Positions 4,171 to 55,917 of a stretch of 64,000 bases of DNA are shown piece by piece; the stretch's first letter is position 1, and each line of letters opens with the position of its first letter. Source of the DNA: an uncultured Bacilli bacterium (GTDB lineage Bacteria > Bacillota_I > Bacilli_A > RF39 > UBA660); the NCBI GenBank assembly GCA_947626595.1, contig CANQST010000001.1, positions 1,076-65,075 of the forward strand, given 5' to 3'. Both the position numbers and the translations under genes were made by a program. The notes under the pieces were generated by a model. That model worked only from the letters and a program-made list of their open reading frames with translations. It ran no database searches and was not told where the DNA came from.

Positions 4171-4195
4171 ATGTACCAATTAAGTGAGGGGGATT

Positions 4196-13911: not shown

Positions 13912-14847
13912 ATGAGATATGCCCAAATACTAGAATGTAGTTCAACTTTAGGCAATTGTTGCAATGACTATGGATTAATTACTATTATTGATATAACTAG
14001 AAAAGTATTTGAATTAATTCAATTAATTGTACCGATACTACTTATGTTAATGATTACGGTACAGTTAGTTAAGATGGTTACTAATCCAGAAGATAAGAAA
14101 GATCCTAAAAAATTGGTTAATAAGATAATTGCGACTTTTGTATGTTTCTTTTTGCCAGTTATTGCGGATGTTGTAGTGGGACTTTTACCTAATAGTTTTA
14201 GTCTTTCTTCTTGTTGGAAAAATGCTAAGATTTCTAGAGAAATTTCAGCTAATAGTCCACTTGTTTATATTAAGGTAACAGATAGGGATCCTTATGCGAT
14301 AGTTACTGATGGTAGTGGGTATGATCCAGGTAATGAAAGACAACCAGGTTCGAGTGGCTCTTCTTCACCAACTGGTTCTGGTGCTCAGCGGTTGATTAGT
14401 GTGGCAGCTGGAGAAATTGGCAACCATGAGAGTAATGGTAGTCACAGTAAGTATGAAAGTTATAATGGTTTGGACTCTTCGCAACCATGGTGTGCGGCTT
14501 TTGTTTCTTGGTGTGCTGGGCAAGCGGGTTTTTTACAGTCAGGTATAATGCCAAAATTTACTCTTTGTTCAGCAGGGGCTGCTTGGTTTCAAAATAAAGG
14601 ACAATTTCATACAGAGGGAAGTGGCTATACTCCACAACCAGGAGATATTGTCTTTTATGGTGCAGGTGGTTCACAACACACAGGAATTGTGGAAAAAGTT
14701 GACGAAAACAATATTTATACAATAGAAGGAAATACTAGTTGCGAGGGAGAAGCACAAAGCAAATGTGGTGGAAGTGATGGTGTCTCTAGAAAAACACGTA
14801 ATAGGCATACTGGTTATGTTTATGGTTATGGAACTCCGGCTTATTAG
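13912..14847 (+). CDS. membrane-associated CHAP-domain peptidoglycan hydrolase/amidase
   Basis: N-terminal Cys-rich segment plus TM helices. C-terminal CHAP domain (QPWCAAFVSWCAG …HTGIV). The 3' half is visibly more GC-rich than its surroundings. Confidence 0.65.
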   Translation: MRYAQILECSSTLGNCCNDYGLITIIDITRKVFELIQLIVPILLMLMITVQLVKMVTNPEDKKDPKKLVNKIIATFVCFFLPVIADVVVGLLPNSFSLSSCWKNAKISREISANSPLVYIKVTDRDPYAIVTDGSGYDPGNERQPGSSGSSSPTGSGAQRLISVAAGEIGNHESNGSHSKYESYNGLDSSQPWCAAFVSWCAGQAGFLQSGIMPKFTLCSAGAAWFQNKGQFHTEGSGYTPQPGDIVFYGAGGSQHTGIVEKVDENNIYTIEGNTSCEGEAQSKCGGSDGVSRKTRNRHTGYVYGYGTPAY

Positions 14848-17633: not shown

Positions 17634-18596
17634 TTATAGCGAAAATATATAAATATAGGCAATGGAGTTAGTAAAACAATAGAAATGATTATTATCTTTA
17701 TAATAAATAATATTTAAGTGGTTTTGTAAGGCAACATCTAGTAAATCTTTAAAGTTTTCTAGGAAGAAAGTTTGATAATTATTAAGATTAGGAATATTTT
17801 TAACATAGACGATTAATTCTTTATAATCTTTAAGAAAATTATTAAGTCTTTTTAAAGTATTTTTCTTTTGTTTATTATATATCTTAATTAGAGTAGTAGT
17901 ACTTATAATAAGGAGAATACTACCAAGAGAAAGAAGAATAAAGGAAATATTTTTAGATGTAGAAATAGTTCTTTTATAAGTTTTTTTAGTAGATTTAGTT
18001 TTTGTAACTTCTACTATTTTGTCTTTTAGGGGAATTATAAATTCTATTTCATCTTTTATTTTTTTATTAAGAGAATTAATTTTGTATGTTATAGAAAGTT
18101 CTAATTTTACATAGGCATTAGTAGATATATTATATGTATCTTCATAACTTTTTACTAGATTTTTATAGTAGTCATAGTCAATGCAGATATTTTTATTTAT
18201 TAAGTATTTCTTCTTAGTTATAGTTTTATTATTTTTATTAACAAAATTTTTCTTTTTCCAGATTTCTTTTTCTGTACCATTTTGATTAGTAAAGGTAGTA
18301 ATAAGTTCTTCTTTATAAATAGTAGTGTAAGAAATTTTTTCTTTGATATCATTATTTAATTGATAGAGAAAATTAATATTAAATGATTTGATGGCATTAC
18401 TTGGGAAAATACCTTTAGTAGTATTTTGATAAAAAGGGTTAGGTTTCAAATTAATAGTATAATTACTAATTTTATTTATTTCTATTTTATGGACTTTGAT
18501 ATTTTTATTAGATATAAAGATACTTAATGAAATAAGAAATATAGATATTAAAAGTAGAAAAATAGAAATATATTTTCGCATATTTTTCTTAAACAT
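17634..18596 (-). CDS. bitopic membrane protein (N-terminal TM, Asn/Lys-rich extracellular domain, second TM), last gene of the sipW operon
   Basis: 320 aa. Starts 5 bp after the sipW-like gene. Confidence 0.45.
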   Translation of the reverse strand: MFKKNMRKYISIFLLLISIFLISLSIFISNKNIKVHKIEINKISNYTINLKPNPFYQNTTKGIFPSNAIKSFNINFLYQLNNDIKEKISYTTIYKEELITTFTNQNGTEKEIWKKKNFVNKNNKTITKKKYLINKNICIDYDYYKNLVKSYEDTYNISTNAYVKLELSITYKINSLNKKIKDEIEFIIPLKDKIVEVTKTKSTKKTYKRTISTSKNISFILLSLGSILLIISTTTLIKIYNKQKKNTLKRLNNFLKDYKELIVYVKNIPNLNNYQTFFLENFKDLLDVALQNHLNIIYYKDNNHFYCFTNSIAYIYIFSL

Positions 18597-18600
18597 ATAA

Positions 18601-19683
18601 TCACCTTTTTAAAATTTCATGGAACCAAATAGATGGGTAACCTAGATATTTAAAACGAATTAGATATGTACCTTTAATTTGATTAACTTTTACTTTTTTG
18701 TAATCAGCGGTTTTATTATTATCACCTTTTGTTTGATATAAATTATTATTAATTTTTTTAATAATACGATGCGCAATTAACTGTTTATCTAATTCATAAA
18801 CAATAATAGTGTTTTCTTTAAGAGTTTCTTTTTCTTCTTTAGATAGTTTTTTTAAGATAATAATATCTCCTCTTTGATATGTTGGATACATACTATTAGA
18901 AAGGACTGCGACGGGGAAATATTTTAAAAAACCTAACATAAAACTTGAAAAAATAGTCGCAAAACCTAGTACAAATGCATATGGTAAAAGTGTAGAAGAT
19001 TTTTTCTTATCTATAAAGTAACTTTCTTCTTTTAATAAATAATATTTAATAGTAATGTATATTAATAATGATTTTATAATACTAATAGAGCCAGATATAA
19101 ACCAATTTATTTTAGGAAGAATAGGGAAAAGTAAGGGTGCAAATCTTTCTAAAATTAAGAAAATAATAGAAGTATAGTAACTGGTTTTATAACTTAGAAA
19201 TGTAGCGGTAATATGGGTTATAATAAGGGGAATAATTGTCTCTATAAAGTATTTAAATATAACTTCTTTATTACTTAGAGTAGGAAATGAACAATAGGGA
19301 AATGTAATAATAATTAGAAAAATGGTAATAAAAACGGGATTATTTCTTTTAAAAAGTAAAATACTTCGTAAATATTCTATGGAAAGAATAGGTATTCCTA
19401 CTAGAAAGATACTTTTTATAATATTAAGAAAGTTATATTTATATGGTGATGGTTTAAAACCACTTAGAAAACCAATACTAAAATATATAAGATAAGTAAA
19501 AATTTCTAATACAAAAATGATAATAAAATATTTTTTATTTTTGGGATAAGTAATGAGATGTTCTTTTTGATAATGAAGGGAAAATGAGAGTATAGATAGT
19601 CCTAAAAATATTTGGATAATATGATAAATATAGAGTTTTTTAAAGAAAAGTAGGATTAAAAATATTATTTTATTCTTGGACAT
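18601..19683 (-). CDS. SipW-type (archaeal/ER-type) signal peptidase I fused to an N-terminal ~230-aa polytopic membrane domain
   Basis: C-terminal S26B module with catalytic Ser in VLSNSMYPTYQRGD and His in LIAHRII. N-terminal ~7 predicted TM helices. 14-bp overlap with the upstream TasA-like gene. Confidence 0.65.
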   Translation of the reverse strand: MSKNKIIFLILLFFKKLYIYHIIQIFLGLSILSFSLHYQKEHLITYPKNKKYFIIIFVLEIFTYLIYFSIGFLSGFKPSPYKYNFLNIIKSIFLVGIPILSIEYLRSILLFKRNNPVFITIFLIIITFPYCSFPTLSNKEVIFKYFIETIIPLIITHITATFLSYKTSYYTSIIFLILERFAPLLFPILPKINWFISGSISIIKSLLIYITIKYYLLKEESYFIDKKKSSTLLPYAFVLGFATIFSSFMLGFLKYFPVAVLSNSMYPTYQRGDIIILKKLSKEEKETLKENTIIVYELDKQLIAHRIIKKINNNLYQTKGDNNKTADYKKVKVNQIKGTYLIRFKYLGYPSIWFHEILKR

Positions 19684-20170
19684 ATTCGATTATTCCTGTT
19701 ATAGTTTTAGTTTTACTATCATTTGGTTCTAAGTTTATATCTTTATCATAAGTAACTGTAATATTAAAAGATGTTTTATCGCCTGATTTTAAAATATTAC
19801 TAAGGGCAGTTGTTTCATAGGAAATAGCTTTAGAGCCATTAATTTCATCAGTTTGAAATAAGACATTTTTTAGTTTGGCATTTATTGTTCCTAGATTTTC
19901 AATGGTAACACGATAGGTAATAGTATCACCAGGATTTATTAATTTAGCATTAAAAGTAACTGTGGTATTGGTAAAATTAGGGTTTCCTGGATTTGTACCA
20001 TTAGTGGCATTTATTACTTCAACATTAGTAATACGAACATCCCAAGAGCTTATGATTTCAGCATTTCCTTTGAAATGAAACTCTGTTGCGAAAGAGGCAT
20101 ATCCAACGGCCATAATTAAAAGTAAGAGTAGGATAATACCTATTATTATATTTCTTTTTATTTGACGCAT
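19670..20170 (-). CDS. TasA/camelysin-like secreted protein with SipW-cognate signal peptide
   Basis: MRQIKRNIIIGIILLLLLIMAVGYASFATEF resembles the SipW-cognate signal class (…GGTYAYFSDTE). N/T-rich beta-rich body. RBS aaaggag 8 nt upstream of the ATG at 20170 (the ORF-track start at 20188 lies inside the RBS). Confidence 0.55.
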   Translation of the reverse strand: MRQIKRNIIIGIILLLLLIMAVGYASFATEFHFKGNAEIISSWDVRITNVEVINATNGTNPGNPNFTNTTVTFNAKLINPGDTITYRVTIENLGTINAKLKNVLFQTDEINGSKAISYETTALSNILKSGDKTSFNITVTYDKDINLEPNDSKTKTITGIIEYVQE

Positions 20171-20295
20171 AATTTCAACTCCTTTCATAAATTAAACTAT
20201 GAAAGGTTATTTAAAAATAGCAGTCCTCTTTAGTATTATATGTATTAATTTATTTTGTGATATAATTATATTAATAAAGAGAGGTAGTATTTTAA

Positions 20296-25640: not shown

Positions 25641-25725
25641 GTTTTGTTTTACATTACAAAATTGTAAGGTTAAATGAAATTTATTGTTATATAATAGATA
25701 TTAGGTGATATACGTGGAAAAAATA

Positions 25726-26379
25726 ATGATAATTGAAGACGATATTCAAATAAGAGAAAATTTAAAAGATTTATTAGAGAAAAATTCTTATCAAGTAGTG
25801 GTATTAGAAGACTTTAAAAATGCTTTAGAAAAAATATTATTAGAAAAGGCTAATTTATTATTACTAGATATAAATATTCCTTATATTAGTGGAGAAATAC
25901 TAATTCAAGATATTAGGAAAAAATCTAATATACCTATTATAATGGTTACTAGTTATAATAATGAAACAGACGAAGCTTTATCTATTTCTTATGGAGCAGA
26001 CGATTATATTACTAAGCCTTATAATCCTAATATTTTACTTTTAAGAATAAAAAATATTTTAAGAAGAGTAAATAAATATTATAATGATAAGATAATTTAT
26101 AAAGATTTAATTTTTGATATTTCTAAAGGAACAATTAAAAATAATAATAAAGAGATAATTCTTACTAAGAATGAAACTATTATTTTTTCTTATCTTCTTT
26201 CTCATAAAGAAGAAATTGTATCAAGAGATGAGCTTATGACTATTCTTTGGGATAATACTGAATTTATAAATGATAATACTTTAACAGTTAATATTAGTAG
26301 GCTTAGAAAAAAACTAGAAGAATTAGAAACAACTATTCATATAGATACTAGAAAGTCTAGGGGGTATATTCTATTATGA
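25726..26379 (+). CDS. OmpR-family response regulator (BceR-like)
   Basis: Receiver domain (MIIEDD…LLLLDINIPY…) and winged-helix output domain. Start at 25705 (GTG) or 25726 (ATG). Confidence 0.85.
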   Translation: MIIEDDIQIRENLKDLLEKNSYQVVVLEDFKNALEKILLEKANLLLLDINIPYISGEILIQDIRKKSNIPIIMVTSYNNETDEALSISYGADDYITKPYNPNILLLRIKNILRRVNKYYNDKIIYKDLIFDISKGTIKNNNKEIILTKNETIIFSYLLSHKEEIVSRDELMTILWDNTEFINDNTLTVNISRLRKKLEELETTIHIDTRKSRGYILL

Positions 26380-27377
26380 GATTAAAATATTATTTAATAG
26401 ATAAAATATATTTTATAATTATTTTTCTTAGTAGTTATCTTTTAATAACATTAATTCTTTTAGCGTTTAAACAAGAAGTGTTAATTATACCAATTAGTAT
26501 AATTTTACTTGTAAGTTTAATTTCTCTTCTTCTTATCGATTATTTTAGAAAAAGAAAATTTTATACTGATTTATTAGAAAATATTAATTATTTAGATAAA
26601 GCTTATATCGTTTTAGAGACTCTTAATAGACCAAGTTTTTATGAGGGAAAATTATTATATGATGCTTTTTATAAGATAAATAAATCAATGAATGAAAATA
26701 TAAAAGTAAAGGAAGAACAATTTGTTAATACTAAAGAGTATATTGAAATGTGGATACATGAAGTTAAAAAACCTATCGCTACACTTTCTTTAGTTCTTAA
26801 TAAAGCTCCACGTAAGACTAAGAATATTATTAAGAATTTAGAAGATTATGTTGATCAAGTTTTATATTATACGAGGAGTGAAAATGCTGAGAAAGATTAT
26901 TTTATTAAAGAAGTAGATTTATCAAGCGTTATAAAAAATGTTGGTGTTAGGAATATGGACGATTTACTTTTAAATAAAATTGATTTTAAAGTAGATAAGA
27001 TAACTTCTTTAGTGTATACTGATATGAAATGGTTAGAGTTTATTATAAATCAAATTATAAATAATTGTATTAAGTATAAGAAAAAAGAAAATTCTTATAT
27101 AAAGATATATGTATTAGAAGATAGTAATAAGACTGATTTAGTTATTGAAGATAATGGTATAGGTATTCCAGATATTGATATAAAAAGAGTTTTTGATAAG
27201 ACTTTTACAGGCTCTAATGGTATAAATAGAAGAACTTCAACAGGAATGGGTTTATATATTGCGAAGAATTTATGTCAAAGATTAGGACATAATATTAGTA
27301 TTATATCTGAAGAAAATTTATATACTAAGGTAATTATATCTTTTGGGAAGAGTAAGTACTTTGAAGTTTTAAAATGA
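26376..27377 (+). CDS. intramembrane-sensing histidine kinase (BceS-like)
   Basis: Two N-terminal TM helices with a minimal loop, H-box EMWIHEVKKPIA, HATPase (EDNGIGIP, GMGLYIAKNL). 4-bp overlap with the response-regulator gene. Confidence 0.8.
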   Translation: MRLKYYLIDKIYFIIIFLSSYLLITLILLAFKQEVLIIPISIILLVSLISLLLIDYFRKRKFYTDLLENINYLDKAYIVLETLNRPSFYEGKLLYDAFYKINKSMNENIKVKEEQFVNTKEYIEMWIHEVKKPIATLSLVLNKAPRKTKNIIKNLEDYVDQVLYYTRSENAEKDYFIKEVDLSSVIKNVGVRNMDDLLLNKIDFKVDKITSLVYTDMKWLEFIINQIINNCIKYKKKENSYIKIYVLEDSNKTDLVIEDNGIGIPDIDIKRVFDKTFTGSNGINRRTSTGMGLYIAKNLCQRLGHNISIISEENLYTKVIISFGKSKYFEVLK

Positions 27378-27460
27378 CAAAATTGTTAGGTTTTTGTAAT
27401 ATTTAATGTGCGACAAATAAATGGATTTAATTTAAAATGTTAGTTGTAAGGAGGGAATAT

Positions 27461-28225
27461 ATGAGTATTTTAAAAGTAGAAAAAATAGAAAAATACTATG
27501 GAAGTCGTTCTTCACTAACAAAAGCAATTGATAATATTTCTTTTGAAGTAGAAAAGGGAGAATTTGTTTGTTTTATGGGCGCTAGTGGGTCAGGTAAGAC
27601 GACGTTACTTAATTGTATTTCAACTATTGATAATGTAACTAGTGGTCATATTTTTTTAGGAGGTTACGATATTACTAAATTAAAAGGAAATGAACTAAAT
27701 AGATATCGTAGAGAGGAACTTGGTTTTATCTTTCAAGACTTTAATTTACTTGATACTTTAACAGCTTATGAAAATATTGCTTTAGCTTTATCTATTCAAA
27801 ATAGTAGAAATTTGGAAATTGATAGAAAAGTTAAAGCAATTGCGAGTGAGCTTGACATTAAAAATATTTTGGATAAGTATCCATATCAAATGAGTGGTGG
27901 TGAAAAGCAACGTGTTGCGAGTGCAAGAGCGGTTATTACTGATGCAAAATTAATCTTGGCGGATGAACCGACAGGGGCCTTGGACTCAAAATCTTCGAAG
28001 ATGCTTTTAGAAAAGTTTAATCATTTAAATAAGGTAATGGGTTCAACTATTTTGATGGTTACTCATGATGCTTTTAGTGCTAGTTATGCTAGTAGGGTAA
28101 TCTTTATTAAGGATGGTAAAATCTTTAAAGAAATAAATAGAGGAGAAACTTCTCGTAAAGATTTTTTTAATAAGATTATTGATGTAGTTACTTTACTAGG
28201 TGGAGATTTAAATGATGCTTTATAA
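27461..28225 (+). CDS. ABC transporter ATP-binding protein (BceA-like)
   Basis: RBS aaggaggg. Walker A GASGSGKTT, signature MSGGEKQRV, Walker B LILADEPTGALD. Confidence 0.85.
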   Translation: MSILKVEKIEKYYGSRSSLTKAIDNISFEVEKGEFVCFMGASGSGKTTLLNCISTIDNVTSGHIFLGGYDITKLKGNELNRYRREELGFIFQDFNLLDTLTAYENIALALSIQNSRNLEIDRKVKAIASELDIKNILDKYPYQMSGGEKQRVASARAVITDAKLILADEPTGALDSKSSKMLLEKFNHLNKVMGSTILMVTHDAFSASYASRVIFIKDGKIFKEINRGETSRKDFFNKIIDVVTLLGGDLNDAL

Positions 28226-30287
28226 ATTATCTTTAAAAAATATCAAGAGAAGTATTAAAGATTATGCCATCTATTTTTTTACTCTTATTCTTGGTGTTGC
28301 GATATTTTATGTTTTTAATGCTTTAGATAGTCAAACAGTAATGATGCAGGTTTCTTCTTCAACAGTTGAGTTAATTGAACTTATGATGCAGCTTCTTTCA
28401 GGTGTTAGCGTCTTTGTTTCTTTTATATTAGGTTTCTTAATTATCTATGCATCACGTTTTTTAATAAAAAGACGAAATAAAGAGTTTGCGATTTACTTAA
28501 CACTAGGTATGAGTAAAAGAAAAATATCATTAATTTTATTTTTTGAAACACTCTTTATTGGTATTATTTCTCTTATAGTTGGCATAGCTTTAGGTACAAT
28601 ATTATCACAATTTATGAGTTTGATAGTTGCGAATATGTTTGAAGCTGATTTAACTAAATTTGCTTTTATCTTTTCTTCTAAGGCATGTCTTAAAACTATT
28701 TTGTATTTTAGTATTATGTATTTACTAGTAATGATATTTAATATAATAAGTGTTAGTAAATGTAAATTAATTGACTTATTAAATAATTCAAAGAAAAGTG
28801 AAAAAATCAAATTAAAAAATCCATATCTATGTATAATAATCTTTATAGTTTCAAGTATTATATTAGGAAAAGCTTATTATATGGTAACTCATGATTTTCT
28901 TACTTTACAAGATTTTAGTGACGCAATGATACCTATTATAATGGGAGCAGTATCTACTTTCTTTATATTTTGGTCTTTATCTGGCTTAATTTTACGAATT
29001 TGTATGGAAAGGAAAAAGTTTTATTATAAAGGGTTAAATAGTTTTACGTTAAGAGAATTTTCTAGTAAGATAAATACAACTGTTTTTTCCACAACTATTA
29101 TTTGTTTAATGTTATTTGTAACTATTTGTTTAATATCAGCTTGCTTTACAGTTAAAAACTCTATGAACGCTAATATTAAAAAACTTGCTCCTGTTGATTT
29201 TGATTTTTCAACTTATATTAATATGGAAAATAGATATGACGAATTTAGAAAATATGGTTTTAATGATGCTCAGATAAGAAATTCTTCTTATAATGTTATA
29301 GAAAAATTTAAATTATTTGATTTTGATATTACTAAGTACTTAAAAAATTATATTGAGATAAATACTTACGCTACTAGGGAATTAACATTTGGTGATACTT
29401 TAGGAAGAAAGTTTGAAGAAGTAAGTAAAATGTTTCCATTTTTGGATTGTACTGAGGAAGAACTTATTATGAAGATTAGTGATTATAATAAAGTTGCGAA
29501 GCTTTATAAAATGAAAGAATATTCTTTAGATAATAATCAATATATGATTATTGCGGATTTCAAATCAATGATTGAAGTTAGAAATATGGCTTTAAAAGAA
29601 AAAGAAGAAATTACAGTATTTGGTAAGACTTTAAAACCAAAATATACTTCTTGTCAAGATGGTTTTTTAGAGATGTCTAGTCAACATATTAATACTGGAA
29701 TAATACTAGTTCCTGATAATGTTGTTAAGGAGGAATACGTATATGATAATCATTTAATAGGTAATTATAATTTAACTAGTAAAGAAGAAATAAGTAATTT
29801 AGAAGATAAAATTAATTCTTTAGGCAATCTTCCTAAAGTAGAAGAATATTTATTACCAGCTGGGTCTACTAAATTAGCTATTATGGAAGCAACTATTGGA
29901 TTATCTGCTATGGTAACATTTATTGGTCTATACTTAGGTATTATCTTCTTAATTAGTAGTGCCGCTATTTTAGGACTAAAAGAATTATCGGAAAGTAGTG
30001 ATAATAAGAATAAATATCTTATATTAAGAAAGATTGGAGCAGACGAAAAATTAATTAATAGAGCCTTATTTAAACAAATATTAATTACTTTTATATTGCC
30101 TTTAATATTAGCTTTAATTCACTCTATCTTTGGTATAATGTTTGCGATTAAAGTTTTAGAAGTATTTGGTAATGAACAGTTAATTCCATCTATTATTATG
30201 ACAGCTTTCATTTTAGTTATTATTTATGGTGGATATTTCTTAATAACTTATTATTGTAGTAAAAATATTATTAAAGAGAGAATTTAA
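28212..30287 (+). CDS. FtsX-family ABC permease with large extracellular loop (BceB-like)
   Basis: 691 aa, 10 predicted TM helices in a 4+6 arrangement with a ~220-aa loop. Overlaps the ATPase gene. Confidence 0.8.
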   Translation: MMLYKLSLKNIKRSIKDYAIYFFTLILGVAIFYVFNALDSQTVMMQVSSSTVELIELMMQLLSGVSVFVSFILGFLIIYASRFLIKRRNKEFAIYLTLGMSKRKISLILFFETLFIGIISLIVGIALGTILSQFMSLIVANMFEADLTKFAFIFSSKACLKTILYFSIMYLLVMIFNIISVSKCKLIDLLNNSKKSEKIKLKNPYLCIIIFIVSSIILGKAYYMVTHDFLTLQDFSDAMIPIIMGAVSTFFIFWSLSGLILRICMERKKFYYKGLNSFTLREFSSKINTTVFSTTIICLMLFVTICLISACFTVKNSMNANIKKLAPVDFDFSTYINMENRYDEFRKYGFNDAQIRNSSYNVIEKFKLFDFDITKYLKNYIEINTYATRELTFGDTLGRKFEEVSKMFPFLDCTEEELIMKISDYNKVAKLYKMKEYSLDNNQYMIIADFKSMIEVRNMALKEKEEITVFGKTLKPKYTSCQDGFLEMSSQHINTGIILVPDNVVKEEYVYDNHLIGNYNLTSKEEISNLEDKINSLGNLPKVEEYLLPAGSTKLAIMEATIGLSAMVTFIGLYLGIIFLISSAAILGLKELSESSDNKNKYLILRKIGADEKLINRALFKQILITFILPLILALIHSIFGIMFAIKVLEVFGNEQLIPSIIMTAFILVIIYGGYFLITYYCSKNIIKERI

Positions 30288-30288
30288 A

Positions 30289-30612
30289 ATGAAAAAGATA
30301 CCTATTGTAATGATAATAATATTATTTATATTAATTATTATATGTATTTATGATTGTTTGTTTAGTAAAAGTAAAATGTATTATACAAAGGTTACTAATA
30401 AAGAAGTAGAAGTAAGTAATAATAAGTATGAGTATAATTTATTAATGTATGATAAGAATGGTATGGGAAAGAGAATAGCTTTTAAGAGTAGTAGGTTACT
30501 TAAGGAAAATGCTTATTTAAAAATAAAGTATTATAGTATTAGTAGGGTTAACATTTGGGAAGAAATAGATTTTAGTAAATTACCTAGTAAAGTTAAAGAG
30601 AAATATAGTTAA
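30289..30612 (+). CDS. small N-terminally anchored protein
   Basis: 107 aa. Starts 2 bp after the BceB-like gene. Confidence 0.45.
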   Translation: MKKIPIVMIIILFILIIICIYDCLFSKSKMYYTKVTNKEVEVSNNKYEYNLLMYDKNGMGKRIAFKSSRLLKENAYLKIKYYSISRVNIWEEIDFSKLPSKVKEKYS

Positions 30613-30620
30613 AGTTATAA

Positions 30621-30644
30621 AGGAATTCTTGAGTTCCTTTTTTC
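30621..30644 (+). terminator. rho-independent terminator
   Basis: aggaattcttgagttcctttttt. Confidence 0.45.
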
Positions 30645-30708
30645 TTTACAATGTAAGGAATAGTGGTGTAAAATATAAGTATATAGTAGGGGATATTTGG
30701 AGGTATTT

Positions 30709-33207
30709 ATGAGGTCAAAAAGAGGTTTTACTTTAGTTGAGTTAATTGTCGCAGTATCTATTATGTCAATAATAGTAATTTTAGCTATTCCCTCAATTGG
30801 AGCAATTCAAAAAAGAAATGCTTTAAAGAGGTATGAAAATTATGGAGAGACAGTTCTTACTAGTGGAAAGCTTTATACTGATAGTAATGAAATAGATATG
30901 TTTGGTTATGATAGTGATGGTTGCTATGACATAAGTTTTGAGAAAATGTTTTATAAAAAATTACTAAAAGATATAGACTATAAAGATGTAACTTGTGCCG
31001 ATAATGAAACTAAAAAGACTTTTGTAAGAGTTAAAAAGCTAGATGGTAATATAAGATATCAACTTTCTATTAGATGTATTGATGGAAGTAATAAGGAAGT
31101 TTATTATGAACCTATAAAAAATCCAATATGTGCTGGAGAAAAATCTCATGAAGGACCTAAGGTAGTAGTAAGTCCTAAGAATACTAGTGGAGTATATAAA
31201 AGTGAAAATGAAAGTTATAAAGTAAGTATAACAGTAAAAGATGATGATGGATTACTTGAAAATAATGAGTTACAGTATTCATGGTGTAAGACAGCTAACT
31301 GTAGTGATGTTACAAGTTATACTACTTTAAGATTTGAAAATAAAAGAGATGTAAAGTCAGCTAGTAAGAAAATAAAAAGACCTAAGGGTGATGGAGTATA
31401 TTATTTAAAGATACATCCAACAGTGGTAGTAGATGTCTTTAATAACGCTACTCATGATGATGCGATATATGGACCATATAATTTTGATACAACACCTCCT
31501 ATTGTAATAGTAAATGCTTATGTAAATGGAACTCAAACTAAGGTTACAGCTGCTGTTATTAGTAGTAGAAAGGTTAAAGGAAAAGAAGATAACCTGATAG
31601 CTTATCAAACGGGAAATATAAATTATAATGATTATCAGAAATTATATAGTAATAAATGGGCTAATAAAGCTAACTTTCCAAGTGGAATATATTATGAGGT
31701 TACTTATAAAGATGATGATGCTTATAAGTTAGGAGTTAAAGGCTCAGGAATAAAAAGCATTGTTTGGAAAGAAAATGAAAGTGATAAAACAACTGGTGGC
31801 GAAGTAAAAGGAAATACGAAATTACCTATTAATGCTAATGGAAAAAGTGGAGCGGCACTAAATAAAGATGGGCATAGAAAAGGTCAAATAACAGTTACTG
31901 ATAATGCTGGAAATTATGTTGTAGTGAATGTTGAAGCATACATTGATTTAACGCTTCCAGGATGTAAAAGTAGTGGTGGAAAAGACGAGTGGATTAATGC
32001 TGCAAGTAATCCAGGATATCGCACAGTAACAGGAACGTGTAGTGATGCTATGAGTGGCTGTGTAGATAAAACTGTTAAATATGATTATAAAGACGATATC
32101 AATACAACGACGGCTGGACCACAAAAAAATGTAAAGGATTATGCTGGTAATGAAAATTCTTGTCCTAATGACCAGATAGTTAAAATAGATAAGACTGCTC
32201 CTACATGTACATCAAATGCTAATTATACTAGTAAGAGCGCAAAAGGATGGTTGAATGCTAGTGATAAAAATGGAAAAGTAACAGTATCTGCTACATGCAG
32301 TGATCCTGGCGCTTATGCAAGTGGATGTAAATCAGTACCAAATTCATTAGTATATTCAACCGATATGAATGAAAAGATAAGTCCTGGAACTGTTTATGAC
32401 AATGCTAATAATTCTACGAAATGTGGAGAAGTAGCGGTTAAAATAGATAAGACAAAACCTACAATATCTTTGACAAGACGTAAATATTCTTCTTATACTA
32501 GTGGTAGTGGTTGTTCAGGAAGAGATATGGGTGCATACCCTAATAATACTTGGACAAACGATCAGTGTGTAAAGGTAACTGCTAGTTTTGAAGATAATTT
32601 GAGTGGAATAGATACTAAAGTATATAGTAGAACTGGTTTTTCAGAAGACAAAACGAATGTGTCTGTTTCTAATCCTCACAGTGTATCTAAGCGAAAAGAA
32701 AGTTCAAGTACCATAACTTATAATATAACAGATAAGGCTGGTAATTCTGCCAGTGCAACTGCTAAAGTAAAATTGGATAGAACAAAGCCTACTTGCTCTA
32801 TATCTGATGCTAGAGCTGGTACGTATAGTGTTGCTTTTAAAGTAAATTGTTCTGATAGTGGAGGTAGCCATTTAACTAATTGCGCTGGTGCTAGTTATAG
32901 TGATAAAAAGAATTCTAAAAGTGTAAATAAGGACGAAAATAGTAGCAAAACTTTTTATGTTAATGATGCGGCAGGAAACTCTAATTCTTGTTCAGTAACA
33001 ATATATCATAATGCAAATCCAGTATGCGGTTCTTATGATTGTAGTGAAAGCTATAGCATGACTGATACTAATGGATGTCCAGAAGTTGCTTGTGCTTGTT
33101 ATGAGTGTAAGGATGGGTATAATTTGAGTTATAATTATGATAACCCAATGTGTTATATGACTTGTACAAAACCGAAGACATGTAATTATACTTGTTATCA
33201 TACATAG
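30709..33207 (+). CDS. giant modular type IV pilin-like protein (class III signal peptide, repeat domains, Cys-rich tail)
   Basis: RBS ggagg. N-terminus MRSKRGFTLVELIVAVSIMSIIVILAIP is a prepilin leader with G-1/F+1/E+5. Four ~95-aa repeats, each beginning xDxTxPT[CI]. C-terminal 60 aa contain 14 Cys. Confidence 0.7.
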   Translation: MRSKRGFTLVELIVAVSIMSIIVILAIPSIGAIQKRNALKRYENYGETVLTSGKLYTDSNEIDMFGYDSDGCYDISFEKMFYKKLLKDIDYKDVTCADNETKKTFVRVKKLDGNIRYQLSIRCIDGSNKEVYYEPIKNPICAGEKSHEGPKVVVSPKNTSGVYKSENESYKVSITVKDDDGLLENNELQYSWCKTANCSDVTSYTTLRFENKRDVKSASKKIKRPKGDGVYYLKIHPTVVVDVFNNATHDDAIYGPYNFDTTPPIVIVNAYVNGTQTKVTAAVISSRKVKGKEDNLIAYQTGNINYNDYQKLYSNKWANKANFPSGIYYEVTYKDDDAYKLGVKGSGIKSIVWKENESDKTTGGEVKGNTKLPINANGKSGAALNKDGHRKGQITVTDNAGNYVVVNVEAYIDLTLPGCKSSGGKDEWINAASNPGYRTVTGTCSDAMSGCVDKTVKYDYKDDINTTTAGPQKNVKDYAGNENSCPNDQIVKIDKTAPTCTSNANYTSKSAKGWLNASDKNGKVTVSATCSDPGAYASGCKSVPNSLVYSTDMNEKISPGTVYDNANNSTKCGEVAVKIDKTKPTISLTRRKYSSYTSGSGCSGRDMGAYPNNTWTNDQCVKVTASFEDNLSGIDTKVYSRTGFSEDKTNVSVSNPHSVSKRKESSSTITYNITDKAGNSASATAKVKLDRTKPTCSISDARAGTYSVAFKVNCSDSGGSHLTNCAGASYSDKKNSKSVNKDENSSKTFYVNDAAGNSNSCSVTIYHNANPVCGSYDCSESYSMTDTNGCPEVACACYECKDGYNLSYNYDNPMCYMTCTKPKTCNYTCYHT

Positions 33208-36506: not shown

Positions 36507-37184
36507 TTGAAAGATAAGTTAGATGGCAAAAAAATGAGTGCTGAAGAATTAGCAAAAACACAGGTTCTTAACTTAAGTGATGTAGAAAGGATTGCTAGTT
36601 ATGAGAAGATGGTAAGTAAAAAGCCAGCTATTGTTATAGGAATAATTGGTTTATTTGCTTTAAGTCTAGGAATTTTTTACCCTAAAATAGTATCTTTTAT
36701 GAATAACGAAGAAGATAAAGGAGAAGTTTATAATAGAGTAGAAAAAGAAGAAGATAAAGAAATTCTTACTAATGATGTTACGACGCAATTAACCTGTACA
36801 AAAAGTTCTTTAGGAAATGCTGATGGTGTTGATTATTCTCTAACTTATAATTATACTTTCAAAAATGATGCCTTACAAAATTATACTAAATTAGCTATTT
36901 ATAATGCCAATGCTACTATTCCAACTAGTGCTAGTTCTATTGAAGGTTTATATAATGGTTTTGTTAGTTTTAGTACGACGCCAGTTACTGGTTACTTTTT
37001 ACAGGCTAGTAAAACTACTAATGGATTTACTGTTAGTTTAAATGTTGATTTGACTAAGTTTAATATTTCAACTTTACCTGATATTAATAAAACTCATTTT
37101 GTATCTAATGTTGAATTTAGTTTAAATGAAAAGAAGGATATAGTTAGTAATATTAGTATAAGTAATGGATTTACTTGTAGATAA
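36507..37184 (+). CDS. bitopic membrane protein, unknown function
   Basis: 225 aa, TTG start, one TM (IVIGIIGLFALSLGIF), S/T/N-rich ectodomain. Confidence 0.45.
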   Translation: MKDKLDGKKMSAEELAKTQVLNLSDVERIASYEKMVSKKPAIVIGIIGLFALSLGIFYPKIVSFMNNEEDKGEVYNRVEKEEDKEILTNDVTTQLTCTKSSLGNADGVDYSLTYNYTFKNDALQNYTKLAIYNANATIPTSASSIEGLYNGFVSFSTTPVTGYFLQASKTTNGFTVSLNVDLTKFNISTLPDINKTHFVSNVEFSLNEKKDIVSNISISNGFTCR

Positions 37185-37530: not shown

Positions 37531-38055
37531 ATGCAAGATAGAGAAAAGATAATAAGGCAAATAGAAAAATATCGAAATAATTCATGGTTTTATAATAGAG
37601 GAGAAATAGAAGATTTTGAAAGAAGAATTTTAGAATGTAGGAATAGTGAATATTGCTATTTCTTTGCAAGAGAAATTAGGGATGCTGATATAGAAAGTCA
37701 TGAAAAAGTAGTTTTAGAAGAAAAGATATTTAAGTATAATTATTTGTTTGCGAAAAATATAATAGGGGCAGATGTTTTAGCTCATGGAAAAGTAGTTATT
37801 GATACTTGTAATCCTAAGTTTAATTATATGTTTGCTCGTGATGTAAGAGGGGCTTTAGTTTTAGATCATGGCGATGTTGTTTTACAAAGTGGAGATCCTA
37901 AATATAATTATTTGTTTGCTAAGAATGTAGTTGGTGCTGATATAGAGAAACATATGGAAATACTTAAGAAAGATAAAAATATTGATTATGTTTATTTGCT
38001 TGATTTAGAAAAAAGTATGGAAAAAGCAAAACAATTAGTAAAAACTTACCAATAA
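37531..38055 (+). CDS. protein with 3-4 internal ~33-aa tandem repeats (YNYLFAKN.VGAD…HGKVV)
   Basis: Repeats visible in the translation: FKYNYLFAKNIIGADVLAHGKVV / PKFNYMFARDVRGALVLDHGDVV / PKYNYLFAKNVVGADIEKH. Confidence 0.5.
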   Translation: MQDREKIIRQIEKYRNNSWFYNRGEIEDFERRILECRNSEYCYFFAREIRDADIESHEKVVLEEKIFKYNYLFAKNIIGADVLAHGKVVIDTCNPKFNYMFARDVRGALVLDHGDVVLQSGDPKYNYLFAKNVVGADIEKHMEILKKDKNIDYVYLLDLEKSMEKAKQLVKTYQ

Positions 38056-40340: not shown

Positions 40341-42791
40341 ATGAATAATAAGAGTTTAACAAAAGAAGAAGATTTACGTGCTAAGGAAGTTTTAAAATTA
40401 CTAGAGGAAGTTTCTACTTTAGAAGAGGCTTTAAAGAGTAAGATTACTTTAAATGATATAAGGATTACTAGGACGTATATAATTAAAAGAATAAATTTAT
40501 TAAAGGGACAGAAGAAGAAATACTTCTATGATAGTGATTTTTATAATTATGAAAAGTGTAAAGAAAAGATTTCTTTTTATAAGAAGAAATTTGCTTTTTT
40601 AGGTAAGTTAAGAGAAGAGTATGCTGCTATTTCTAGTATTGTATCTAAAAATAGTTCTTCTATTGATAAGAAGATGTATGCTGTTAATAATATTTTGATG
40701 TTAGACTTTTTCTTTTCTAGTACTGATAAAGAATTATTTATGCATTTTTTAGAGGAAAAAGATACTCTTAAAAGAATAGATATATTAACAAAACTTAGAG
40801 AATTATATATAAATGCTACTTATCATTTATATAGAGCTAAGAAGACTAAGCAGGAAGAAATTTATAAGATTATTGCGAGAGAAAATGGTTTAGATGGAGG
40901 ACTTAAAAAGAATAGAAAAGAGTTTTCTTTATTACTACAACAAGAACGTTATAGGGAATTAAGAAAAGAATTACTTTTAGTTAAAGAACAATATAGTAAG
41001 AGTAAAAGATTTTTAGAAGAATTAGAAAGATTAATTAAGTATGAACAAAAAGATTGTGATAATCTAGTTCCAAAGAAATGTTTAGAGATAGACGATACTG
41101 ATTATGAAGAGATAATTGGTGATAAGTGTGGAAAGAACTTTATTAAGAGATTGGAAAATATTAGAGATGGTAAGTATATTAGAAAGTATGGTTTAGGGTT
41201 AGAAAAGTTTGTTCCTAATGAGGTATTGGAGGTATTTAATGAGTTAGAAAAGCTTGAGGATACTTCTAAGGAAGAGGCTTGTGTTTTAGCGATTGATGTC
41301 TTAAAGAATAAACTTCGTATTCTTAAGAAGGGATTAAATCCATATGATGATGTGGAAAGAAAATTTTTAAAGATGCTTATTAAGATGTTTGAAGATATGA
41401 GACCTTTAAAAATAGAAGAAGATGTTATAGATACAAGTGTTTATTATGATATTGTGGAGGCATTATGTCATAATGATAATAATTATTCATACATTGAAAG
41501 ATTAATTAGAGAAAATTCAAATATAAGAAATGCTAGAAAGAATAATTATCATATAATTATAAGTTTACTTGATAGTTATATTTTAAGTTCTAAGTTGAAA
41601 TTAGCAGAACAAGGTTTTAATTTTATAGAGCCAGATTTTTATAAGGAAATAATTAAGGCTTTTTATAAAAATAAAGTTATTCTTACCGAGGAAGAACAAG
41701 AAATTATTAATAGTAGATTAAGTGAATTTGAAGCTTATGTTAATGATGTTGGCAGAAAGAAATATGGCTTAGTTGGGGTTATTAATAAGAGTATAGAAGA
41801 TTTAAGGACGTGTGGATTTCAACAGGTAAAAAGTGATGTTGATAATGATAAGCTAGTACAAGAGATTAGTTTGTTAGATTTTAATAAGGAAAGAGTAATT
41901 AATAATTATATGCATAAATATTCTTTTTATAAAGATGGCTCTAACAGCAGAGTATTTATGATAGATGGTATTGATAATTGTTGCTTTTCTATTAATTATG
42001 AGGATTATAGGGATGTTGTTTTTGGAGTACATTTTCTAGATACTAGTAAATTAGTAGAAGAAGATAGTGAAATAGTAAAGGCTGCAATGGAAGGAAGAAA
42101 TGTACTTCCTAAGATGGAAAAGGGAATAAATCCGGTTATGAGTTTTACTTGTCATTTCTTAGATTATAAGCATTTTTCAGAGTGGAGAATAGAACCAGGA
42201 ATTGTTTATGTTGATAAAGTTTATAATAGTTTTGATATAGATAGATATAGGGAAGATGAGACTTTAAAGAATATGTATATTTTCCTAAATAATTTTAAAG
42301 ATATAGAAAATAAAGAGAGTATCTATTCAACTTCAGGTGTAAAAGATGTTGTTTTTAAAGATATATCTAATTATTTAAAAAAGAAATTTAGGGATTATAA
42401 ATTGCCATTTATTTATGAAAAAACACAAGAAGAAGCAGAAGATATAATTAGAGTAAATCATAATTCTATATGTGATAAGTTAAGTAAAATTCCTAAGAAG
42501 GAAGCTCATAGAATATTTGCGGTTATAGACGAAGAAATGGATAAGTATTATGTTCCAAGAGGAGATAGAAAAGTTGATGTTTCTTTAGATACTAGTACTT
42601 TCTTAGGTTATTATTTAATGAATATTTTAGGAAAAATTCAAAAGAATAAGTATGATATTGATAAAGAAAGTGAAAATTTAAAAAATTATTTGGAAAAATT
42701 AAATGGTAGACGAGCTTACCTACCAGTAGGAATTATTAAAAATAATGAAAAGAAAATTAGGAGAATGGTTAGAGATTATAAGAAAAAGTAG
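40341..42791 (+). CDS. large hypothetical cytoplasmic protein; C-terminal half with degenerate RNB (RNase II/R)-like motifs
   Basis: 816 aa. VFMIDGIDNCCFSIN…GVHFLDTSKLV resembles RNB motifs (TIDG..A.D.DDA.S / VHIADVSHYV) but lacks the catalytic Asp cluster. Confidence 0.5.
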   Translation: MNNKSLTKEEDLRAKEVLKLLEEVSTLEEALKSKITLNDIRITRTYIIKRINLLKGQKKKYFYDSDFYNYEKCKEKISFYKKKFAFLGKLREEYAAISSIVSKNSSSIDKKMYAVNNILMLDFFFSSTDKELFMHFLEEKDTLKRIDILTKLRELYINATYHLYRAKKTKQEEIYKIIARENGLDGGLKKNRKEFSLLLQQERYRELRKELLLVKEQYSKSKRFLEELERLIKYEQKDCDNLVPKKCLEIDDTDYEEIIGDKCGKNFIKRLENIRDGKYIRKYGLGLEKFVPNEVLEVFNELEKLEDTSKEEACVLAIDVLKNKLRILKKGLNPYDDVERKFLKMLIKMFEDMRPLKIEEDVIDTSVYYDIVEALCHNDNNYSYIERLIRENSNIRNARKNNYHIIISLLDSYILSSKLKLAEQGFNFIEPDFYKEIIKAFYKNKVILTEEEQEIINSRLSEFEAYVNDVGRKKYGLVGVINKSIEDLRTCGFQQVKSDVDNDKLVQEISLLDFNKERVINNYMHKYSFYKDGSNSRVFMIDGIDNCCFSINYEDYRDVVFGVHFLDTSKLVEEDSEIVKAAMEGRNVLPKMEKGINPVMSFTCHFLDYKHFSEWRIEPGIVYVDKVYNSFDIDRYREDETLKNMYIFLNNFKDIENKESIYSTSGVKDVVFKDISNYLKKKFRDYKLPFIYEKTQEEAEDIIRVNHNSICDKLSKIPKKEAHRIFAVIDEEMDKYYVPRGDRKVDVSLDTSTFLGYYLMNILGKIQKNKYDIDKESENLKNYLEKLNGRRAYLPVGIIKNNEKKIRRMVRDYKKK

Positions 42792-54524: not shown

Positions 54525-55892
54525 TTGTATAATAGAACTATAAGTGGTGGAAGTTCAGATAATGTACAGGGTTCAATAGACGAATTATATAAAATGAGTG
54601 GAGTAAGTACTACTCAATATAAGGAAGAAATTTTAAACGGAGCAGACCCAGTATTGGGTGAAGGAATGATACCAGTAACTTTAGATGGTGATGGGACAGT
54701 AAAGTACGCTAATTTAAATACACCTTGGTATAAATATGAAGAAAAGAAATGGGCAAATGCAGTAATACTTAAGAGTAATCCAAGTAAAAGTTATAAAACA
54801 GGGGATATAATCTCAGAAAACGATATTGAGAGTTATTTTGTGTGGGTTCCAAGATTTAAATACAAAATATGGAACTTAACAAGTGAAGATGGGTATCAAG
54901 ATACATTTACTAATACTGCTAATGATGCTAATTCTATAAGACAACTTACTGGAAAAGCAAGATTAATAGACATAATATTTGAAGATAAAGATGCACAACC
55001 ATCAACTACAATAGCATTAAATTTATATTATACCCATCCAGCGTTTACTGCTTTTAGAGTAAATGGTTTATGGATAGCTAAATTTGAAGCTAGTGGTACA
55101 ACAAGTGCCATAACAGTAAAACCAAATATGACTTCTTTAAGAAGTACCACAGTTGGTTCTTTTTGGCATGCATTTTATGATTATAAAAATACTAGTGGAA
55201 ATCATAATACTAATTTAGATCCACACATGATAAAGAACACTGAATGGGGAGCAGTCGCCTATCTTTCTCATTCAGTATATGGAATAGGTAAAGAAGTAAA
55301 TGTAAATAATAATTTAAGTTTTAAAACAGGTTATTCGGCGGCATCAAATACTGACCAAAGTTCATATTCTGGAACTACCGGAACTAAAGAAATTACTGAT
55401 GATGATGGACCAGCAGTAACACAACCATATAATACATCAACTGGCTATCTTGCTTCAACAACAGGAAATATCACAGGAATATATGATATGAGTGGTGGTG
55501 CTTGGGAATTTGTAGCAGGTTATCTTGACCCTTATGGACTTAGTAATAATAGTGGGGTAGCAAGTGGCTTAACGGCTACTGATTTAGCTAAAGCACAGTA
55601 CTTTGACCAATATTCTGGTGCTTTAACATGGTCTTCTTACAGTAAGAGAATTGTTGGAGACGCCACTGGAGAGTTAGGTCCTTTCTACTATTATAAAGAT
55701 AAAGATAATTCTAGTCGCACTCATAATGGATGGTATGCTGACAGCTCTAATTTTATTGAACCTATCAATACTTGGTTTGTTAGAGGTGGTTATTGTGCTG
55801 ATGGAGTACTAGCTGGTCAGTTTAATTTTGATAGGTATACTGGAGGCATGAATGTCAATCGTGGTTCTAGGTTTGTTCTTGCAGTAAAGTAA
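54525..55892 (+). CDS. secreted FGE-sulfatase/SUMF1-domain protein (paralog A), currently separated from its start and signal peptide by a frameshift
   Basis: FGE-domain motifs: HPAFTAFRVNGLWIAKFEAS, MIKNTEWGAVAYL (≈LPTEAEWEYAA), GIYDMSGGAWEFV (≈GLYDMAGNVWEW), VRGGYC (≈RGGSW), NRGSRFVLA (≈GFR). The TTG at 54525 is only the first in-frame start codon in the ORF track. Confidence 0.65.
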   Translation: MYNRTISGGSSDNVQGSIDELYKMSGVSTTQYKEEILNGADPVLGEGMIPVTLDGDGTVKYANLNTPWYKYEEKKWANAVILKSNPSKSYKTGDIISENDIESYFVWVPRFKYKIWNLTSEDGYQDTFTNTANDANSIRQLTGKARLIDIIFEDKDAQPSTTIALNLYYTHPAFTAFRVNGLWIAKFEASGTTSAITVKPNMTSLRSTTVGSFWHAFYDYKNTSGNHNTNLDPHMIKNTEWGAVAYLSHSVYGIGKEVNVNNNLSFKTGYSAASNTDQSSYSGTTGTKEITDDDGPAVTQPYNTSTGYLASTTGNITGIYDMSGGAWEFVAGYLDPYGLSNNSGVASGLTATDLAKAQYFDQYSGALTWSSYSKRIVGDATGELGPFYYYKDKDNSSRTHNGWYADSSNFIEPINTWFVRGGYCADGVLAGQFNFDRYTGGMNVNRGSRFVLAVK

Positions 55893-55917
55893 AAGGAAAA
55901 AGGATGTGATTTATATT

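Follow-up and report, generated by a model that had tools for sequence, protein, structure and literature searches.

What is a protein of 832 residues, with the N-terminus of a type IV pilin, doing in a stretch of DNA that encodes no other recognizable part of a type IV filament? The stretch is 64,000 nucleotides of contig CANQST010000001.1 (assembly GCA_947626595.1, an uncultured Bacilli bacterium of the RF39 lineage), referred to throughout as the window, and the gene lies on its forward strand at positions 30709 to 33207. An earlier note on this DNA had proposed a modular adhesin pilin, displayed by pilus or competence machinery encoded at a distance. The answer we favor, with a probability of about 0.62, is that the gene encodes a modular type IV pilin that is built into a filament by machinery encoded elsewhere, and that most probably sits at the tip of that filament. 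By analogy with modular pilins from other bacteria, the protein is probably a minor pilin serving as a tip adhesin. In its modeled architecture, a pilin module joined to extra non-pilin modules, it is a modular pilin in the sense of Raynaud et al.

The case for pilin identity begins with the N-terminus, MRSKRG/FTLVELIVAV, where the slash marks the predicted cleavage site and Glu stands at position +5. This sequence scores 30 bits to the Pfam N_methyl model PF07963 (cut-off 21.2) and 25.5 bits to TIGR02532 (cut-off 16.3), so the class III prepilin signal described in the earlier note is upheld by two curated models. It is the only N-terminus of its kind in the window; strict and relaxed patterns applied to all six frames found no second one. 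Residues F7, T8, L9 and E11 (F+1, T+2, L+3 and E+5 of the mature protein) are invariant in each of two alignments, one of 68 full-length homologs and the other of 24 N-terminal modules, and G6 (G-1) is at least 90% conserved in the same two sets and is otherwise Ala. Loss of G-1 and E+5 among orthologs, named in the earlier note as the observation that would speak for an ordinary signal anchor, is therefore not what the alignments contain. The pattern G[FYM]T[LMV][IVL]E occurs near the N-terminus of 131 of the 142 family proteins retrieved; the remainder are Ala-1 variants, one +4 variant, or N-terminally truncated fragments.

A profile built from the first ~150 residues, searched against all PDB sequences, returned 22 matches at E<=1, of which 20 are type IV pilins or pseudopilins, including Geobacter PilA-N, Streptococcus sanguinis PilE1, MshA, several PilA, GspG and PpdD. 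The mature F1 of these solved pilins aligns on F7 of the protein, and the alignment to PilE1 (8pfb) spans all 53 residues of the alpha-1 helix. That the profile matches almost nothing else bears out the identification as a pilin. When the profile was limited to the globular head and the domain that follows it (D1, below), with the hydrophobic half of the helix, alpha-1N, removed, no meaningful match among PDB sequences was found. AlphaFold packs a helix of residues 9-59 on a four-stranded sheet (strands 70-76, 105-111, 114-124 and 130-134 in the model of the pilin module), and does so both in the whole-protein model (predicted local distance difference test, pLDDT, 74.5) and in a model of residues 1-148 (pLDDT 87, predicted template modeling score 0.72). 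On this evidence, the signal and alpha-1 give good support for placing the protein in the type IV pilin superfamily, and the pilin head is a new variant.

The open reading frame, taken from the list of open reading frames of the window, runs uninterrupted from 30697 to 33207 on the forward strand. Translation from the ATG at 30709 yields 832 residues and is preferred over translation from the TTG at 30697, because GGAGG (30699-30703) ends 5 nt before the ATG and the upstream TTG overlaps this ribosome-binding site. The open reading frame of the earlier note is thus real, but its length of 836 residues holds only for the TTG start. The product is 100% identical to P0001 of the public protein collection. 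Beyond residue 148, AlphaFold predicts six beta-sandwich domains in a row, followed by a 67-residue tail for which it gives no structure, a graft of ~680 residues on the pilin module. The features of the gene and its product, several of which are predicted to have immunoglobulin-like (Ig-like) folds, are these:

30645..30674, forward strand: promoter-like site TTTACA-18-TAAAAT upstream of the pilin gene (10 of 12 consensus matches; weak evidence, from a consensus scan in which shuffled sequence yields about as many sites as real sequence).
30699..30703, forward strand: ribosome-binding site GGAGG, read directly from the sequence.
30709..33207, forward strand: coding sequence of the 832-residue modular prepilin, stop codon included, from the open reading frame list.
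30709..30726, forward strand: leader peptide MRSKRG (residues 1-6), with predicted prepilin peptidase cleavage after Gly6, from PF07963, TIGR02532, the alignment of F1 on F7, and the conservation of G-1.
30727..30885, forward strand: alpha-1 helix (residues 7-59), with hydrophobic alpha-1N and invariant Glu11 (E+5); AlphaFold predicts helix 9-59 in both models.
30886..31152, forward strand: globular head of the pilin module (residues 60-148), modeled as a sheet of four strands (pLDDT 84-97); cysteines C72, C96, C123 and C141 are invariant.
31153..31494, forward strand: D1 (residues 149-262), predicted beta-sandwich that, with the pilin module, makes up the conserved 270-residue "carrier" of the family (pLDDT ~85-95).
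31495..31941, forward strand: D2 (residues 263-411), larger predicted beta-sandwich with a disordered insertion at residues 292-305, from AlphaFold; common to the closest homologs, P0002 and P0003.
31942..32184, forward strand: D3 (residues 412-492), predicted four-Cys Ig-like module starting IDLTLPGC, with Cys 419, 444, 451 and 485 (pLDDT ~90).
32185..32442, forward strand: D4 (residues 493-578), four-Cys Ig-like module predicted by AlphaFold, starting IDKTAPTC, with Cys 500, 530, 540 and 572.
32443..32772, forward strand: D5 (residues 579-688), predicted Ig-like domain of a different type (DNLSGID ... DKAGNSAS), from sub-threshold domain matches and AlphaFold.
32773..33003, forward strand: D6 (residues 689-765), predicted four-Cys Ig-like module starting LDRTKPTC, with Cys 696, 714, 725 and 761 (lower pLDDT, 35-69).
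33004..33204, forward strand: C-terminal tail (residues 766-832), with 10 cysteines by count and no recognizable family (pLDDT ~30).

The model places a string of Ig-like domains behind a pilin head, which is the modular architecture that had been proposed, and the repeats themselves, whose structure had been in question, are modeled as Ig-like beta-sandwiches. The earlier note counted four tandem modules of ~95 residues. Its motif, [IL]D[KRL]T[AKL]P[TG], is indeed found at four sites (residues 412, 493, 579 and 689), but the modules so marked are 77 to 110 residues long and fall into two types: three with four cysteines (D3, D4 and D6) and one Ig-like domain of the form SGID...DxAGN (D5). Two more beta-sandwich domains, at residues 149-262 and 263-411 of the AlphaFold model, lie upstream of the modules it listed. 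The four-Cys module takes the form IDKTAPTC ... GTCSD.GGSGC ... DNAGNS..C, for which there is no Pfam model; its IDKTxP end only grazes Big_3_2. D5 shows sub-threshold matches to Invasin_D3, HYR, Big_3_2 and an OmpL47-type domain in Pfam and NCBIfam, and the extra domains of the protein in general reach only sub-threshold Pfam scores. Self-BLAST of the protein found no internal similarity at E<=10, and Tandem Repeats Finder, run on the DNA, returned nothing beyond a trivial 11-bp repeat. Although real, the modules have diverged too far for either method to detect.

Foldseek, given the whole model, matches the stalk to strings of Ig-like domains in GhpA, SiiE, RTX adhesins and the MG domains of complement, with E-values from 1e-9 to 1e-6 and identities of 9-14%. 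Template modeling scores are low, 0.15-0.27, because the domain type alone is common to these proteins and not the whole arrangement. As modeled, the graft would be an elongated stalk rather than a specific enzyme or receptor fold. Thirty cysteines occur in the whole protein. The 14 cysteines assigned by the earlier note to the C-terminal 60 residues proved to be a miscount: the last 60 residues hold 10, and 14 is the number in the last 137 residues, four in D6 and ten in the tail. Assignment of the tail to TSP1 or another known domain was rejected, with no Pfam or NCBIfam match even at E<=1. The C-terminus, ...CTKPKTCNYTCYHT, has no sorting signal of the kind that marks a sortase-anchored (LPXTG) surface protein, in which an LPXTG motif is followed by a hydrophobic segment and a basic tail.

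The protein belongs to a large family. The full sequence finds 305 homologs at E<=1e-3, nearly all of them with PF07963 and between 460 and 1400 residues in length; size variation was among the points that the earlier note had marked as worth checking. An exhaustive phmmer search of 1.84 billion cluster representatives with residues 1-274 returned 1025 proteins when the threshold was set at E<=1e-3; at E<=1e-10 there were 551, which puts the family at 551 or more clusters at 50% identity. About 75 of the best 120 homologs have the entire 270-residue N-terminal part, pilin module and D1, in common at 30-69% identity, and their C-terminal architectures differ. Modules found there include TSP1 repeats, ALK/LTK glycine-rich regions, Gly_rich_2, Big_3_2, Big_3_3 and Big_13, together with the four-Cys module, repeated up to 11 times. 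Matches to "Imm1" in homologs were disregarded as sums of fragments with no passing stretch. A Cys-rich end (at least six cysteines in 60 residues) occurs in 33 of the 120, and these tails could be aligned neither with that of the query nor with each other. Family members have a median of 28 cysteines, a content that in our own judgement is unusual for an extracellular protein of a presumed anaerobe. From these comparisons, the first 270 residues appear to be a constant carrier, with C-terminal modules shuffled between paralogs, and this combination is the pattern expected of a diversifying adhesin repertoire.

Among GTDB contigs limited to one genome per species, 36 loci encode the carrier, and three or four loci are commonly present in a single metagenome-assembled genome (MAG). 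For 35 of the 36, the MAG is labeled as uncultured Bacilli, Mollicutes, Tenericutes, Mycoplasma sp., Firmicutes, Bacillales or "uncultured bacterium"; the single outlier is in a bin labeled Acidaminococcus. The hosts are rabbit, goat, deer and human, from the gut, and the closest relative in the GTDB set, 69% identical over the carrier, is in the rabbit MAG Lapin-016__bin45. Across ~38 loci the large pilins occur in unrelated contexts, scattered in nearly all, and there is no synteny between the window and the loci of the closest homologs. The large pilins also form clusters of as many as four consecutive genes. The canonical GFTLxE motif, in loci around family members, is seen only on open reading frames of at least ~370 residues, mostly 600-1000. 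Short family members considered as major pilins were rejected as truncated or frameshifted fragments. A few small pilin-like open reading frames carry degenerate motifs, some beside an ATPase gene described below and one directly 5' of a large pilin in the closest relative. The last of these (L007, 4385-4981, in Lapin-016__bin45) encodes 198 residues, precedes a 608-residue family pilin, and starts MNNRG/FAKFEVL, a degenerate prepilin N-terminus with G-1, F+1 and E+5; the window has no equivalent.

A gene for a single-pass membrane protein of ~245 residues comes after each of the large pilin genes in distant relatives (L001, 12743-13501 and 15299-16027; L004, 12609-13334 and 15887-16651). These membrane proteins form one family, with 25-27% mutual identity, conserved cysteines and no Pfam family, and may be a dedicated accessory factor; no homolog is encoded in the window. 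In two unrelated MAGs (L001, 3872-12721; L003, 8894-14316) large pilins adjoin spoIIGA-sigE, and L003 also encodes a SpoIVB-type peptidase. A link to sporulation, perhaps through structures of the spore surface, was set aside as probable coincidence, with the spoIIGA-sigE adjacency seen in only 2 of ~38 loci. No published description of the family was found in the literature. The "conserved pilin" of TANB77 belongs to a Tad-like cluster with pilins of 143-236 residues (PMC11680825), and was rejected as a member of the same family because that Tad-like system is unrelated.

Evidence for the assembly machinery comes from relatives. The MAG Lapin-026__bin111 encodes two homologs ~50% identical to the query in the carrier, and 7 kb 5' of the gene for a family member of 1006 residues lies the gene for a 722-residue ATPase that scores 458 bits to GspE, 432 to PilB and 265 to ComGA, for which the cut-off is 300. 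It is transcribed divergently from two small pilin-like genes whose N-termini read GFVLVE and GMTAIE. The core of the ATPase has more than 8000 relatives; over 418 residues, identity is 87-94% in the best 120 clusters, and two of these are labeled as Bacilli bacterium MAGs. Its recurrent neighbors are the two pilin-like genes, a PDZ protease and the gene for a thymidylate kinase. In three loci (L008, 586-3968; L041, 8246-11947; L042, 8546-11842) it diverges from the two pilin-like genes, and the 10 kb around it were found to contain neither a platform protein nor a peptidase. The C-terminal extension of the ATPase is low-complexity, rich in Pro, Gln and Lys, and very variable, with total lengths from 467 to 732 residues. 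The clade thus appears to have a highly conserved PilB-type system with dispersed genes. For the present genome we infer a prepilin peptidase and a PilB-type system, supported by the strict conservation of the residues needed for cleavage and assembly. The earlier suggestion of distantly encoded machinery looks plausible in this light: the homologs are scattered in nearly all of the ~38 loci, and a relative has an ATPase of the PilB/GspE type.

The mechanism we envisage draws on the biology of type IV filaments and on modular pilins such as PilB and PilC of S. sanguinis and CofB of enterotoxigenic Escherichia coli (ETEC). The prepilin would insert into the membrane through alpha-1N. A prepilin peptidase encoded elsewhere would cut after Gly6 and methylate Phe7, the Phe1 of the mature protein, after which PilB-type ATPase machinery, also encoded elsewhere, would build the pilin module into the growing filament. 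The protein would be a low-abundance minor pilin at or near the tip, since an extension of this bulk cannot be packed into the shaft. The Ig-like stalk would keep the variable, Cys-rich end module away from the fiber, and this distal module would bind a ligand in the gut, whether on the host, in mucus, on a food particle or on another microbe.

Modular pilins are widely distributed and number over 1,200 proteins, in 264 architectures and with lengths up to 860 residues (Raynaud et al. 2021, PMC8179133); they are likely exposed at the tip, and PilB of S. sanguinis has been shown to be an adhesin (PMC8179133). They are also reviewed in PMC10191384. The nearest parallels are PilB, with a vWA domain, and PilC, with a lectin domain, of S. 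sanguinis (PMC8179133; Shahin et al. 2023, PMC9934059), which likewise come from a monoderm host, carry a class III signal with E+5, join a small pilin module to a C-terminal non-pilin graft, and have a proposed role in adhesion from the tip; PilE1, which our family profile aligns over the whole of alpha-1, is the major pilin of the same pilus. They differ in that the graft here is ~680 residues of six beta-sandwiches plus a Cys-rich tail instead of one vWA or lectin domain, that the gene lies outside any pil locus, and that the family, known from sequence alone, consists of several scattered paralogs per genome with shuffled C-termini. CofB of ETEC and TcpB of Vibrio cholerae are also large minor pilins, with a pilin module followed by a beta-repeat and a beta-sandwich, and are thought to sit at the tip (PMC8179133), but they are diderm type IVb proteins with long leaders, are encoded inside the pilus operon, and have two extra domains against six here; no sequence similarity to them was seen beyond alpha-1N, and neither is among the PDB matches of the profile searches. 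Among the multi-repeat modular pilins of candidate phyla, a Candidatus Falkowbacteria pilin of 860 residues with 12 IPR013211 repeats (PMC8179133) resembles the present protein in its prepilin signal, long repeat array and similar size. Its repeats, however, are of another family than the four-Cys module, for which Pfam has no model, its taxon is other than gut Bacilli MAGs, and the 270-residue carrier here includes a conserved first beta-sandwich. The stalks of SiiE, the RTX adhesins and the GhpA grappling hook superpose on the C-terminal 680 residues and have the same presumed role of holding a binding module off the cell, yet these proteins are exported by type I secretion or other routes and are not pilins. 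The protein is distinct from known modular pilins in the length and composition of its graft, in a D1 that travels with the pilin module, in a four-Cys repeat absent from databases, in its high Cys content and in its scattered paralogs. The modular-pilin concept is already known, and this protein extends that principle and overturns nothing.

Several observations weigh against a tip adhesin assembled from afar. Motif scans of the window found no T2SSE Walker-B/Asp-box motif, no peptidase A24 motif and no other pilin; tblastn found no match to the ATPase or the minor pilins of the relative; and no type IV filament Pfam family appeared in ~40 scanned open reading frames. No filament ATPase, platform protein or prepilin peptidase was thus found in the window, in agreement with the absence of PilB, PilC, PilD and ComG genes asserted in the earlier note. 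The ~9 kb past the right end of the window, reached through an FtsQ-like protein, holds cell-division and envelope genes only, with none for a type IV filament, and 766 kb of related loci contain no A24 motif. No small major pilin, or paralog consisting of the head only, was found in the family. The invariance of E+5 is as compatible with a place in the shaft or beneath another subunit as with the tip; some tip-most subunits, GspK for example, are without E+5. When the pilin module was compared with the PDB by Foldseek, no hit reached significance (best E-value 0.47), so the pilin fold of the head rests on model topology together with the alpha-1 match. Lastly, the tail has no recognizable binding domain, and the case for adhesion comes from the architecture.

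The main alternative is display without a true pilus. Here the protein would be cleaved by the peptidase and handled by type IV filament machinery, only to remain on a short pseudopilus or other membrane-proximal assembly that exposes Ig-rich proteins through the wall; the result would resemble an archaeal "bindosome" or the pseudopilus of a type II secretion system, not the tip of a long retractile fiber. In the bindosome of Sulfolobus, large substrate-binding proteins that are not pilins carry class III signals and are displayed at the surface by an assembly resembling a type IV filament. That system is archaeal and its proteins are different, which makes it an analog for this alternative only. 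We consider display of this kind unlikely. The points in its favor are the restriction of canonical GFTLxE to large open reading frames in family loci, where the small ones are degenerate; the clustering of large pilins up to four in a row; the failure to find a paralog of the pilin module alone; an invariant E+5, as in subunits that stack on each other; an ATPase whose 87-94% conservation across many MAG-derived clusters suggests a core function; and a report that sortases are lacking in some related orders (PMC10868615). Against it, a major pilin may lie elsewhere, since type IV filament genes are dispersed in related genomes, and the window itself encodes a sortase with a substrate built of a thioester domain (TED) and SpaA-type domains, so conventional display is present. 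A broader form of the idea strikes us as doubtful, namely that the type IV filament system of this clade of uncultured, Mollicutes-related gut Bacilli could be a general display system, whose main clients would be the giant pilins with their multiple paralogs and rapidly shuffled ends. Such a system could consist of the ultra-conserved PilB-type ATPase and two conserved small pilin-like proteins, with genes dispersed on the chromosome. It could conceivably replace or supplement sortase-anchored adhesins, possibly through "bottle-brush" filaments made largely of large subunits.

A second alternative makes the protein a minor pilin of a ComG-type DNA-uptake pilus, with the extension capturing DNA or anchoring the pilus. 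The best NCBIfam match by E-value is in fact the ComGE equivalog (3.8e-07), with ComGC, ComGF and ComGD also appearing, and among the type IV filaments of Bacilli, Com pili are the commonest (PMC7212644, PMC12153270). All of these matches, however, are confined to residues 3-47, the shared alpha-1N, and all fall below their cut-offs (ComGE 30.1 bits against 49, ComGC 21.1 against 75, ComGF 18.5 against 80, ComGD 14.2 against 70); there is no comG operon in the window; the Lapin-026__bin111 ATPase scores far higher to GspE and PilB than to ComGA, where it misses the cut-off; and an Ig-like stalk is an adhesin-type architecture, not a DNA-binding one. With equivalog scores below cut-off and a clade ATPase that favors GspE and PilB over ComGA, a ComG system looks less likely, on sequence, than a PilB-type system, and the Com pseudopilin reading as a whole is improbable. 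Least probable is an ordinary uncleaved signal anchor, that is, a type II membrane-anchored surface protein with no filament link: the lack of a prepilin peptidase or type IV filament gene in the window or its ~9-kb extension would suit it, but the motif scores above both curated cut-offs, and it is solved pilins in particular that the profile matches. Moreover, F+1, T+2, L+3 and a charged Glu in a hydrophobic helix are all invariant in homologs that are otherwise only 25-50% identical, which a simple anchor would not call for. The modular pilin at a filament tip remains the reading we prefer.

The immediate neighbors of the pilin gene are as the earlier note described them, a BceAB module on one side and a HAD hydrolase on the other, by Pfam scans of the flanking open reading frames. 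On the 5' side, at 25705-30612 on the forward strand, are genes for an OmpR-type regulator, a histidine kinase, an ABC ATPase, a 691-residue FtsX permease and a DUF1093/YxeA-like protein. Together they are a complete Bce-like peptide-resistance module directly 5' of the pilin gene, which we take, by comparison with Bacillus subtilis, to be the Bce/YxdJKLM-YxeA arrangement. A weak hairpin with a T-run, spotted by eye and not flagged by the terminator scan, lies between this module and the pilin gene (30620-30645). On the 3' side are genes for a Cof-type HAD hydrolase, a DedA/VTT protein and TypA/BipA.

The G+C content of the window is ~27%. The organism is walled and probably sporulating, because MurG, MurB, FtsW, a sortase and a GerM-like protein are encoded in the window. 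At 4184-6326 on the forward strand, a gene for a 506-residue surface protein with a TED and two SpaA-type domains is followed by that of the sortase; the window thereby also encodes a conventional sortase-dependent adhesin or pilin. Three genes in a row at 17634-20188 on the reverse strand encode a secreted protein of 172 residues with a TasA/camelysin-like signal (...AVGYASFATEFHFKGNAEI) and weak CARDB/DUF7507 matches, a polytopic membrane protein of 360 residues that ends in a signal peptidase S24/S26 domain (SipW-like), and a DUF5305 protein. An N-terminus of the same kind as that of the 172-residue protein (...SIGYAVLSATLRINGTAKV) begins a 664-residue protein encoded at 55906-57900, within the region 54525-57900 on the forward strand. 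Judged by sequence, these two regions look like a separate SipW-dependent fiber or matrix system. In a 311-residue protein encoded at 13912-14847 on the forward strand, a pilin domain of type IV secretion systems (PF18895, 33.8 bits) is joined to a peptidoglycan hydrolase domain of the CHAP type, an unusual fusion that is possibly a remnant of a conjugative element. Three forward-strand open reading frames have no Pfam family: one of 816 residues (40341-42791), one of 225 residues (36507-37184), and one of 174 residues (37531-38055) with internal repeats of ~20 residues (…KFNYMFARDV…/…KYNYLFAKNV…).

Modular pilins are believed to account for the range of functions that simple type IV filaments acquire, and few have been studied: PilB and PilC of S. 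sanguinis, CofB and TcpB, and ComZ. The family described here is large and unnamed, with at least 551 clusters, nearly all from uncultured Bacilli and "Mollicutes" lineages in the gut of humans and herbivores. Pfam and NCBIfam have no model for the pilin head, for D1 or for the four-Cys repeat, so that current annotation consists of the 27-residue N-terminal motif only. If its members are adhesins, they are likely determinants of the attachment of these gut bacteria to host, mucus or particles, and would be candidates both for immune recognition and for variation at the strain level.

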